Below are positions 6,157 through 8,583 of a DNA stretch of 64,000 nucleotides, piece after piece (position 1 is the first letter of the stretch; each line of letters opens with the position of its first letter). The notes beneath the pieces are model-generated. The model saw only the letters and a list, made by a program, of their open reading frames with translations, searched no databases and was not told the origin of the DNA. This DNA comes from Candidatus Doudnabacteria bacterium. GTDB taxonomy: Bacteria > Patescibacteriota > Doudnabacteria > UBA920. A program made the position numbers and the translations under genes. The stretch spans positions 18,312 through 82,311 of the forward strand of contig JBBRMG010000001.1 in NCBI GenBank assembly GCA_038230955.1, in the 5' to 3' direction.

Positions 6157-6251
6157 CTGCTGCTCTTCGGAAACTATCGCTCGAGTTGCTGCAGCTGAGC
6201 TTCGCTCATCTTAGCAACTTATTCGCTCAATAGTTTCTTAAAGAGCAGCAG
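6157..6251. repeat. nested palindromic intergenic repeat, copy 2, between rpsQ and rplN inside the ribosomal operon
   Basis: Outer inverted repeat ctgctgctctt (6157-6167) / aagagcagcag (6241-6251). Core 6170-6237 is ggaaactatcgctcgag...gctcaatagtttc with an internal hairpin. Confidence 0.7.
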
Positions 6252-6274
6252 GCAAGAAAATCGTAAATATATTA

Positions 6275-6553
6275 TTAAACTTTCTTCAAAACCTTAAACT
6301 GTTTGCCGCGGCTGATTGGGCGTGTGGCTTCAATCACAACCTTATCACCTTTATGGTATTCGTTACCTTCGTCGTGAGCCTTATAGCGAGAAGTTACCGT
6401 ATAACTCTTGTGGTACTTCGGGTGACGCTTGCGGGTTTCGACTTTGATTACGACGGTCTTATCCATTTTATCGGATACGACGGTGCCGGTAATTTGCTGT
6501 CTCTTAACCTGTTTAGGTTGCTCTATTATATTGTTTACTGGATTCTCTTCCAT
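6275..6553 (-). CDS. rpsQ: 30S ribosomal protein S17
   Basis: GxVVSDKMxKTxVVxVE OB-fold signature. Confidence 0.92.
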
Positions 6554-6557
6554 ATAA

Positions 6558-6743
6558 TTAGCTATTAGCCTTTAATGAGGTCATAATTCTTGCAATGTCT
6601 TTACGGACTTGCCCGATCTGGTGTGTAGTCTTAACCTGTGACAAACGGCTCTTCACCCGAAGGGTCATCATCTGATCGCGCAAGTCTGCCAAATCTTTGA
6701 CCAACACTTCTCTAGGTTTTTGGGATAATTCTTTGTACTTCAT
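6558..6743 (-). CDS. rpmC: 50S ribosomal protein L29
   Basis: 61 aa, with a helical L29 signature (ELxxKxxxELxxxLxxLRxxxxxG). Confidence 0.9.
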
Positions 6744-6747
6744 AAAT

Positions 6748-7161
6748 TTATAGACTAGCCTTTGATAAAAACTTGCTTTTCACTGGTAGTTTGTGGCTGG
6801 CTAGTCGCATTGCTTCCTTAGCGGCGGCTTCACTAACACCGTCCATTTCAAACATAATCTTGCCCTTCTTCACAACTGCGACGAAGTGGTCAACAGCACC
6901 TTTTCCACTACCCATCGGAGATTCATTGCCGTGAGCTGTTACCGGTTTGTCTGGGAACATGCGAATCCAAATCTTACCACCACGATTAATAGAGCGGGTC
7001 ATAGCGCGACGGGCGGATTCAATCTGCCGGGAAGTAATCCAGGAGCTTTCCATAGCTTTCAGAGCGAAGTTGCCAAATGCAATTTCAATTCCAGCAGAAG
7101 CTTTGCCTTTGTTATGACCGCGATGGTGTTTGCGGTGTTTGACTTTCTTAGGAAGTAACAT
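6748..7161 (-). CDS. rplP: 50S ribosomal protein L16
   Basis: MLxPKxxKxRKxxRG N-terminus and RMGxGKG motif. Confidence 0.93.
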
Positions 7162-7166
7162 ATGAA

Positions 7167-7844
7167 TTAACGGTTATTAGTTCGATTGTTAGTAAGAGGG
7201 GCTGGATTATTTTCATAAACATCGCCTTTATAAATCCAGACTTTAATGCCGATAGTACCGAAAGTAGTGAAAGCGGTGCTCCGAGCAAAATCAATATCGG
7301 CACGGATAGTATGAAGTGGAATTTTTCCCTGAGATAAATGCTCCGTTCGGGCAATTTCTGCGCCATTCAAACGGCCACCAATAGCCACCTTAACACCCTT
7401 AGCCCCAGCTTGCATAACAGATTCTAGGGTCTGCTTCATCAGTTTCCGGAAAGCAACGCGCTTTTCTAACTGTTCAGCAATACCGTTGGCAATAACTTGC
7501 GAGTGCAAATTAATATCGCGAACTTCTTCTATGTTCACCTTCAGTTCTTGCTTAATGCCAAGCTTCGATTTGACGCGCTTCTTCAACTCTTCAATCCCTG
7601 CGCCCCCTTTACCAATAATTAACCCTGGCTTGGTGGTACGGATGATAACAGTAATGGTGCCGTCATTCAATCGTTCAATATCAACACGACTCAAACCTGC
7701 TCTCTTCAAGTGGGTCTCCAAGTATTCGCGGATGCGCACGTCTTCGCGCAACATATCCACGTAATTGGACTTCGAAAACCACTTGGATTTCCAGGTGTCA
7801 GTTATCTTTAAACGAAATGAAGTTGGATTGACCTTATGTCCCAT
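7167..7844 (-). CDS. rpsC: 30S ribosomal protein S3
   Basis: MGHKVNPxxFRL N-terminus and a KH domain. Confidence 0.94.
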
Positions 7845-7849
7845 AAAAG

Positions 7850-8455
7850 TTATTTAGATTGATGATCACCACCGGTGACATGGTCACCAGTTTTTTGCTC
7901 AACTACGGCCTCAGCATTTTCCATATGAGTAGCTTTATGTTCGCTAGCCTGTTCTGTATCAAATTTAGCAGATGGTCCAGACTCTGGCACGCCAACGCTA
8001 CCTTCTTTGGTAATCACTGGCTTGTCTTTCTTACTGCTGCGGTTAGTCAGAGTGGATAGGGCGAAACGGGATTTCTTAAGAGCCTTTACTGCTCGTTCTT
8101 CCAATACAACATTAACATGGGAATTCTTACGGCGGATAACGAAAGCGCTGCCACGAGCCCGTGGGAAGAAACGCTTCATGGTCTGACCCATATCACAAGT
8201 AATAGTTTTAATAAACAACCCGTCAGCTTTGAGAGAAAAGTTATTCTCAGCATTGGCAACAGCCGAATTCAGTAAAGTTGTCAGAAGTTTAGCCCCTTTC
8301 TTGTTGGTAAAACGAAGTTGAGTCAAAGCATCGGCGACGCGCATGTCTTTTACTAAATTAGTGACCAAGCGCATTTTGCGTGGGGAAATTCGAAGACTGC
8401 GGGCAGATGCCTTTATGAGCTGGGGAGTATTCTGTTGTTCAGTTTTGTCGGCCAT
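7850..8455 (-). CDS. rplV: 50S ribosomal protein L22, with N- and C-terminal extensions
   Basis: Core ARxxRISPRKxRLVxxLVxxxxVxxAL, flanked by a roughly 15-aa N-terminal extension and a roughly 70-aa C-terminal extension. Confidence 0.9.
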   Translation of the reverse strand: MADKTEQQNTPQLIKASARSLRISPRKMRLVTNLVKDMRVADALTQLRFTNKKGAKLLTTLLNSAVANAENNFSLKADGLFIKTITCDMGQTMKRFFPRARGSAFVIRRKNSHVNVVLEERAVKALKKSRFALSTLTNRSSKKDKPVITKEGSVGVPESGPSAKFDTEQASEHKATHMENAEAVVEQKTGDHVTGGDHQSK

Positions 8456-8494
8456 AATGCGGAATGGTTGTTATTGTTGCTGTTCCTGTCGGTG

Positions 8495-8583
8495 CCAGAT
8501 TGCTGCTAAGAAACTATTGGAGCCGTGAGAAGGGAGCTGTTAAGCGAAGCTTCTAGGCGACTAGTTTCGAGCCAGCAATCTGG
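8495..8583. repeat. nested palindromic intergenic repeat, copy 3, between rpsS and rplV inside the ribosomal operon
   Basis: Outer inverted repeat ccagattgctg (8495-8505) / cagcaatctgg (8573-8583). Core 8510-8568 is gaaactattggagccgtgag...ctaggcgactagtttcg. Confidence 0.8.

Follow-up and report, generated by a model that had tools for sequence, protein, structure and literature searches.

REP and BIME sequences and REPINs are short extragenic palindromes that often lie within operons, where they classically protect the upstream part of the mRNA from 3'-5' exonucleases and are presumed targets of a protein acting in trans. ERIC sequences, likewise often located in operons, are co-transcribed and were shown to change the stability of flanking mRNA segments (PMC2229807). 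The Correia elements of Neisseria, also called NEMIS or CREE, are co-transcribed with their neighbors, and the resulting RNA hairpins are bound by RNase III, which cuts or protects them (PMC2649163, PMC2229807). Here, we analyze a stretch of 64,000 nucleotides (64 kb; hereafter, the window) from a Candidatus Doudnabacteria bacterium (GCA_038230955.1, contig JBBRMG010000001.1, positions 18,312 to 82,311 of the forward strand), in which hairpin-forming repeats occupy two junctions of the S10-spc ribosomal protein operon, rpsQ-rplN and rpsS-rplV. We consider it probable that these two inserts are lineage-specific dispersed palindromic repeats of a Doudnabacteria-like host belonging to the candidate phyla radiation (CPR), co-transcribed with the operon as a generic mRNA hairpin.

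The genes of the S10-spc operon are read from the minus strand, starting with rpsJ (at approximately 12.1 kb) and ending with secY (1006-2286). From rplC to rplO its junctions mostly measure 3 to 19 nt, with two exceptions, the rpsQ-rplN spacer of 139 nt (6136-6274) and the rpsS-rplV spacer of 154 nt (8456-8609), both delimited by open reading frame (ORF) coordinates and, for the former, with gene identities assigned through tblastn and Pfam in relatives. The rplO-secY and rpsJ-rplC junctions measure 33 and 201 nt, respectively. A first-pass annotation of this DNA had pointed to the rpsQ-rplN and rpsS-rplV spacers as unusually long and as each holding a repeat copy, and both observations stand, down to the exact lengths. 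Copy c2 (inverted repeat at 6149-6259) is located between rpsQ (S17; 6275-6553) upstream and rplN (L14; 5764-6135) downstream, and copy c3 (inverted repeat at 8483-8596) between rpsS (S19; 8610-8945) upstream and rplV (L22, 201 amino acids; 7850-8455) downstream, with all four genes on the minus strand.

Both spacers are predicted to fold strongly. On the operon strand, the folding energy was -57 kcal/mol for the c2 spacer (z, -8.0) and -48 kcal/mol for the c3 spacer (z, -7.2), the latter reaching -63 kcal/mol on the plus strand. Placed in approximately 450 nt of mRNA context, the mean pair probability was 0.97 for c2 and 0.88 for c3, so that both hairpins persist, and in both inserts stem lengths suitable for RNase III, about two helical turns of double-stranded RNA, are predicted on the operon strand. 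No U-run was present 3' of c2 or c3 on this strand, a terminator scan of the inserts on the operon strand gave no match, and no promoter-like site was found inside them on that strand in a scan of positions 5700-9000. Co-transcription of the hairpins with the operon is therefore plausible, given the lack of promoter- and terminator-like sites and the modeled persistence of the hairpins in the mRNA. The earlier description of the inserts as roughly 90-nt three-helix hairpins without a T-run needs correction in length and helix number; they are slightly longer, extending over about 6149-6259 and 8483-8596, and form rods of four to five helical segments. An assembly artifact at c3 is ruled out by an independent Logan contig (L081), in which this spacer is identical base for base. 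Ambiguity in the orientation assigned by the assembly was likewise dismissed, since the arms, judged by eye, fall short of exact reverse complementarity over 30 nt, so that a k=31 graph would fix the orientation of the loop.

Including the two operon inserts, the family numbers at least six copies within the window, three per strand and all intergenic, of which five are of a long form and one is of a short form. The element is a 65- to 110-nt rod with the conserved core GAGAAACYATTGGAGC...GCGACYRGTTTCG, in either form. Its outer stem of 12 to 20 bp differs in sequence from copy to copy and is always paired. Inside this stem lies a conserved ring, 5'-(G)AGAAAC-YR-UUGGAGC ... GCGAC(C)-YR-GUUUCG-3', to which the long forms add an extra conserved helix, GGAGC/GCUCC, and a variable tip. 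In an alignment of eight members, 95.5% of cells were paired, versus 79% in shuffled and 32 to 45% in slid-partner controls, and both sides had changed in 18 of 28 pairs. In the core, helix P2 shows covariation, with CUA/UAG, CCA/UGG, and CAG/CUG in different forms. Copy c2 lacks the loop motifs and retains the hairpin. The pattern GAAACTAT..TAGTTTC occurs at five sites with six matches, the site at 6170-6237 matching on both strands, versus 0 expected in shuffles.

The arms of all six copies are unique in the window, the internal ring alone is shared, and no terminal inverted repeats are common to the copies. This combination of a conserved internal ring with copy-specific outer stems does not fit the standard models of repeat spread, whether by transposable elements of the miniature inverted-repeat type (MITEs) or by REP sequences. 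An origin of the outer stems as copies of nearby host DNA, by snap-back or inverted target duplication, was considered and rejected, as their arms have no counterpart elsewhere in the window. Strand asymmetry in G-U content and folding energy was also discarded as a guide to the functional strand, being inconsistent between copies. Rfam 15 showed no family over any copy at gathering thresholds in the whole window and no relevant match at E values up to 10 in 6100-8650. Exact-pattern scans with the long and short cores gave no match in GTDB species genomes, JGI metagenomes, or IMG/VR, which suggests that the family is narrow; outside the window, it was traced solely through protein-anchored look-ups.

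A covariance model (R1) built from four copies and searched over the window recovered the copies at the five pattern sites and one more, c6. Four of the six copies lie outside the two ribosomal protein junctions, and three of these are of the long form. Copy c1 (895-996, plus strand; model match 905-985, 99 bits) lies between an unknown ORF (77-808, plus strand) and the 3' end of secY, and UUUUUAUU follows it when it is read on the minus (secY) strand. Copy c4 (55720-55825, minus strand; model match 55731-55815, 94 bits) lies between pnp (55847-58168) and tgt (54498-55706), both on the minus strand, and is sense to both. Copy c5 (60818-60920, minus strand; model match 60827-60912, 94.5 bits) follows closely on a xerC/D-like tyrosine recombinase gene (59813-60805, plus strand), precedes a tRNA-Arg gene (61018, plus strand), and is antisense to both. 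The short-form copy c6, with the core AGAAAACCATTGGAGCAACGCGACTGGTTTTCG and a unique outer stem, occupies a convergent gap by the 3' end of fusA (19101-19170, plus strand; model match 19110-19160, 26.7 bits, E value of 1.5e-5). Thus, family members adjoin housekeeping genes (secY, fusA, pnp/tgt, and xerC/tRNA) in sense, antisense, and convergent contexts. We also considered the possibility that GAAACTA resembles an uptake signal or is over-represented in some other way; it is nearly confined to the elements, with one occurrence elsewhere versus 5 to 9 expected, a scarcity no more extreme than that of many other 7-mers, and this candidate was dropped.

In comparison with the described systems, the elements resemble the ERIC/IRU sequences of Enterobacteria, 127-bp imperfect palindromes, in being dispersed, intergenic, about 100 nt long, able to form long stem-loops, present in either orientation, and often placed inside operons. 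However, ERIC sequences share one full-length consensus with short terminal inverted repeats and TA duplications, whereas here the internal ring alone is shared and the outer stems are copy-specific, a distinction drawn from their description; their host phylum is also unrelated to CPR bacteria. Correia elements are likewise short palindromic repeats with a conserved core and serve as the model for a possible involvement of RNase III, but they carry conserved 24- to 26-bp terminal inverted repeats, duplicate a TA target, and can create promoters or IHF sites, none of which was seen here. Inspection of the flanks and a comparison of filled with empty junctions revealed no consistent direct repeat at the flanks, and the ends of the element are not sharply defined. 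REP/REPIN-RAYT systems have in common with our elements that they are short extragenic palindromes, often within operons. Their units of 20 to 40 nt are conserved as a whole and carry a conserved GTAG head, whereas the elements described here are larger and GTAG is not conserved, the bases preceding the core being GUAGG in c1, GCAGG in c5, GUUAG in c4, and GCU-A in c3; neither a RAYT nor any Y1 transposase was found among the ORFs scanned in the window. Integron attC sites were considered and rejected: judged by eye, GAGAAAC/GTTTCGA departs from the RYYYAAC/GTTRRRY core sites at the base of such hairpins, the arrangement is the reverse of theirs, with a conserved center and a variable base, and the recombinase encoded nearby is a XerC/D-type enzyme.

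Judged by its RpsC, whose best GTDB match has 83% identity, the window falls among Doudnabacteria-like CPR bacteria. The closest lineage found is represented by two contigs of sample SRR34294545, L082 (rplD to rplV) and L094 (rpmC to rpsN), whose products share 94% (RpsS), 94% (RpsC), 93% (RplN), 90% (RplE), 83% (RpsQ), and 76% (RplV) amino acid identity with those of the window. L22, the rplV product, is among the most divergent of the operon proteins compared with these closest relatives. Both junctions are filled in this lineage: the rpsS-rplV spacer of L082 (118 nt) contains a short-form element at 2336-2414, and the rpsQ-rplN spacer of L094 (128 nt) contains a long-form element at 476-572. 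In a second relative, L083, rpsS-rplV contains an element's 3' half. Homology between the window and the SRR34294545 lineage extends to the spacer flanks and the outer stems (alignment A4; shuffle p of about 0.0015 for the 3' flank). In each outer stem of 17 pairs, 9 to 10 pairs are unchanged, 4 show compensatory double changes, and 2 were gained or lost. Slightly more distant relatives have empty junctions. The rpsQ-rplN spacer measures 10 nt in L095 (RplP, 92% identity; RpsQ, 79%) and 2 to 9 nt in L090 to L093, L085, and L004, and the rpsS-rplV spacer measures 8 to 35 nt in L091, L085, and L004.

By this distribution, the origin of both operon inserts falls later than the divergence from the empty-junction relatives and earlier than that from the SRR34294545 lineage. 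They are thus lineage-specific and have been retained, which speaks against a recent insertion. Six copies in 64 kb, together with operon junctions that are filled or empty depending on the relative, conform to the presence/absence pattern of dispersed short repeats of the MITE type. The suggestion of the first-pass annotation that the inserts are tolerated selfish insertions carried in the operon mRNA fits a dispersed, strongly folding repeat family; recent insertion, which it had also implied, does not agree with family members at the same two junctions in the closest lineage found, with homologous flanks and outer stems, an outcome that the annotation itself had named as speaking against it.

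A further, weak short-form family member (15 bits, E value of 0.07) was detected in the second-tier relative L091 (GCA_040384045.1) at 12031-12080 on the plus strand, with the core GAGAAAACAGUUGGG...ACCUGUUUUCG. It sits in a hairpin of -29 kcal/mol in the rplO-secY spacer, and its GAAAACAG/CUGUUUUC helix extends the covariation of the core helix. The operon of this genome also has an extra ORF of 105 amino acids between rpsC and rplP (6936-7253, plus strand), which gave no Pfam match, and a 213-nt gap after rplN; its rplX and rplE genes look fragmented, possibly by frameshifts.

The orientation of the core differs between the two operon inserts and also between orthologous sites. The covariance model matched c2, a divergent long form, on the minus strand (6161-6248; 31.2 bits, E value of 6e-7) versus 10.3 bits on the plus strand, and the sense strand of this copy is therefore that of the operon. 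It matched c3, of the long form, on the plus strand (8500-8577; 78.8 bits) versus 12 bits on the minus strand, so that c3 is antisense to the operon. At rpsS-rplV in L082, the model selected the operon-sense strand (34 bits, plus strand), opposite to c3. At rpsQ-rplN in L094, it selected the antisense strand (53 bits, minus strand, versus 11 bits on the other strand), opposite to c2, and the core of this element is most similar to that of c3, not to that of its positional partner c2. The form differs as well at rpsS-rplV, being short in L082 and long in the window. Thus, the outer stems persisted as orthologs, and the core inside them was inverted or replaced. Such a change could plausibly have come about when recombination or template switching took place across the inverted arms, or when other copies donated their core by gene conversion, with the palindromic GAAACYR/YRGTTTC arms as the path.

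In small inversions of chloroplast non-coding DNA, a hairpin loop bounded by short inverted repeats changes direction from one related lineage to another, and the stems stay in place. By analogy only, a flipped loop within stable stems is what we see at both operon junctions. However, the chloroplast small inversions are single loci and not a dispersed family with a conserved core, and here the long or short form changes in addition. Because the form changes too, simple inversion and replacement or gene conversion are equally likely. Since both orientations occur and orthologous sites flip, the operon mRNAs would share a generic stable hairpin alone and no sequence-specific RNA signal. A sequence-specific role of the RNA in the operon transcript thus appears unlikely.

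Translation signals and one further spacer of this operon deserve mention. A Shine-Dalgarno motif was recognizable in none of the 20 operon genes (1006-11556, minus strand; 30 nt upstream of the starts checked), and the upstream regions are A/U-rich, many of them with AAATAAT or a close variant. The rpsJ-rplC spacer (11557-11757, minus strand) has little overall structure (z, -1.2) and contains a conventional terminator-like GUGGA...UCCAC hairpin followed by U7. A long gap at this position is also present in relatives. Given the terminator-like hairpin, rpsJ may be transcribed separately from rplC onward.

Since insertion, compensatory changes have maintained the pairing of the stems in the operon elements, and the core has undergone inversion or replacement. 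In our reading, the conserved ring would be recognized by the element's own maintenance machinery. Such a machinery could be a function acting in trans, in DNA binding, recombination, or transposition; alternatively, copies could convert one another through the palindromic GAAACYR/YRGTTTC arms. Either would act independently of orientation, which would account for the similar cores, the drifting stems, and the core flips. At S10-spc, the element would simply be co-transcribed, so that the rpsQ/rplN and rpsS/rplV junctions of the mRNA would each gain a very stable hairpin. By analogy with REP, ERIC, and Correia sequences, such a hairpin would block 3'-5' exonucleases and could provide RNase III with a double-stranded substrate. 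Junctions of 3 to 10 nt together with the lack of Shine-Dalgarno-like motifs imply coupling of translation by termination and reinitiation; a hairpin would be expected to break this coupling, so that rplN and rplV would need de novo initiation. The mRNA hairpin may be beneficial or may merely be tolerated.

Several observations weigh against this overall reading. Among the ORFs scanned in the 64-kb window, there was no transposase, RAYT, or other partner gene, and the sole reverse transcriptase (23638-24666) belongs to a diversity-generating retroelement (DGR). Shared terminal inverted repeats are absent and target-site duplications are not evident, which leaves a classical MITE mechanism unsupported. 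The family was found in few contigs, and the pattern scans of GTDB, JGI metagenomes, and IMG/VR were empty. Moreover, retention of the elements and compensatory evolution of their stems in a small CPR genome could equally fit a selected operon function. Compensatory stem evolution indicates that pairing is maintained, and selection on the mRNA, selection on the element, and templated quasi-palindrome correction all fit this observation.

Hairpins are not confined to this family in the group. In the four closest GTDB genomes (L001 to L004), which are of the Doudnabacteria type, S10-spc junctions hold hairpin repeats of unrelated families. Three of them carry 70- to 150-nt hairpins in most of these junctions (L001, 281-6780; L002, 924-6630; L003, 2870-11162), and L004 carries hairpins in three, rplC-rplD (3190-3285), rplX-rplE (8291-8386), and rpsH-rplF (9585-9689). 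The arms are built of periodic 6- to 8-mers, TACGAA/TTAGTA in L001, TACGGA/TCCGTA in L002, and ACAGAT/ATCTGT in L004; in those of L001, a mismatch recurs regularly, once in each period, and an identical element of 103 nt occupies two neighboring junctions of this genome (3705-3809 and 4134-4236). In two other relatives, L085 and L086, the operon is compact. Occupancy of the junctions is therefore frequent in the group, yet it shifts from genome to genome.

With this background, one may ask whether the hairpins are selected cis-acting elements of the operon, for which repeats provided the raw material. As processing sites for RNase III or another RNase, or as exonuclease barriers, they would segment the S10-spc transcript by half-life and set the stoichiometry of ribosomal proteins. 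Both junction hairpins were kept across 24% RplV divergence with 8 compensatory stem changes, they are predicted to be stable in the mRNA context, and the operon genes lack Shine-Dalgarno-like motifs and are otherwise tightly coupled. The independent presence of other hairpin families in S10-spc junctions of four Doudnabacteria-type genomes could reflect convergent use. Nevertheless, the filled junctions vary by genome, and close relatives function with empty ones. The cores of c2 and c3 face in opposite directions, each again the reverse of that at its orthologous site, so that a sequence-specific RNA signal is not conserved, and the same family occurs in unrelated contexts, including antisense and convergent ones. 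Finally, templated quasi-palindrome correction during replication is an established process that could keep stems paired in the absence of selection. On balance, we regard a selected cis-acting role as unlikely.

It is tempting to extend this idea to the clade as a whole. Hairpin repeats might then be a recurrent, selected punctuation of the S10-spc transcript, and the ring of the present family a new protein-recognized module, read independently of orientation and flipped or swapped within a persistent stem. The ring might in this case act as a GAAACYR helix flanked by purine-rich loops; a recombinase could be its reader, for instance, or it could be recognized as double-stranded DNA. If this were true, the most conserved operon of the cell would contain a switchable or exchangeable junction element, but we consider such a scenario quite improbable.

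A similarly doubtful alternative is that the conserved ring is a motif, of either structured RNA or single-stranded DNA, that binds a protein and works in the sense strand of the element itself, the copies being small RNA genes or binding sites. The pattern of conservation is reminiscent of functional RNAs, with invariant nucleotides in the internal loop and helix, covarying stems, an optional variable extension, and the P2 covariation described above. In 5 of 7 copies, the fold is better on the sense strand, and tandem G.A pairs, if they form on the two sides of the GAAACYR helix, would point to a platform resembling a k-turn or loop E. However, the loops do not fit standard k-turn geometry on inspection, no Rfam family was matched even at E values up to 10, and c2 keeps its hairpin without the loop motifs. 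The strand asymmetry is small and inconsistent. The flanking genes of c3 and c5 run opposite to the sense strand, and the scan of 5700-9000, a range that covers c3 and lies outside c5, revealed no promoter-like site in the c3 spacer.

That the long spacers are transcription unit boundaries, with the hairpins splitting the operon as U-tract-independent terminators or attenuators, is highly improbable: the hairpins are very stable, a conventional terminator-like hairpin exists in the rpsJ-rplC gap, and c1 follows secY, but among c1, c2, and c3 the direct U-run that defines an intrinsic terminator together with a G+C-rich hairpin has a counterpart only in the UUUUUAUU after c1 on the secY strand, c2 and c3 are followed by no U-run on the operon strand, no promoter-like site downstream could restart transcription of rplN or rplV, and the junctions are uninterrupted in relatives.

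Our preferred interpretation thus remains that of dispersed palindromic repeats carried in the operon mRNA. Ribosomal protein operons are among the most compact and conserved bacterial gene arrays, and CPR genomes are small and streamlined. Against this background, persisting junction hairpins of approximately 100 nt, compensatory stems, flipping cores, and unrelated hairpin families in up to most S10-spc junctions of related Doudnabacteria-type genomes are unexpected. Searches of the open-access literature revealed nothing relevant on repeats, MITEs, or hairpins in CPR bacteria, Patescibacteria, or Doudnabacteria, and no account of the phenomenon. The locus provides a natural system for asking if hairpins shape mRNA processing and ribosomal protein stoichiometry where Shine-Dalgarno-led initiation seems to be lacking. 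If the elements are neutral passengers, they represent a modest addition to the catalog of bacterial repeats.

Other features of the window were also noted. A further strong and long hairpin, at 17368-17455 on the plus strand (-43.5 kcal/mol; z, -6.4), lacks the family core and is followed by UUUUU; it is located between the start region of tuf and a flavodoxin gene and had no Rfam match. The DGR mentioned above is complete and spans positions 23638-27650. It comprises the reverse transcriptase gene (minus strand), a bAvd-like accessory gene (24619-25023, plus strand), a template repeat (25045-25179), and a variable repeat (25498-25632) that lies at the 3' end of an ORF encoding a PcfJ-like protein of 718 amino acids (25494-27650, minus strand). 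All differences between the copies of the 135-nt repeat are at plus-strand T, which corresponds to A on the coding strand. At 29403-29522 on the plus strand, the window contains a full-length match to the LOOT RNA (RF03000), with 73 bits versus a gathering score of 46.

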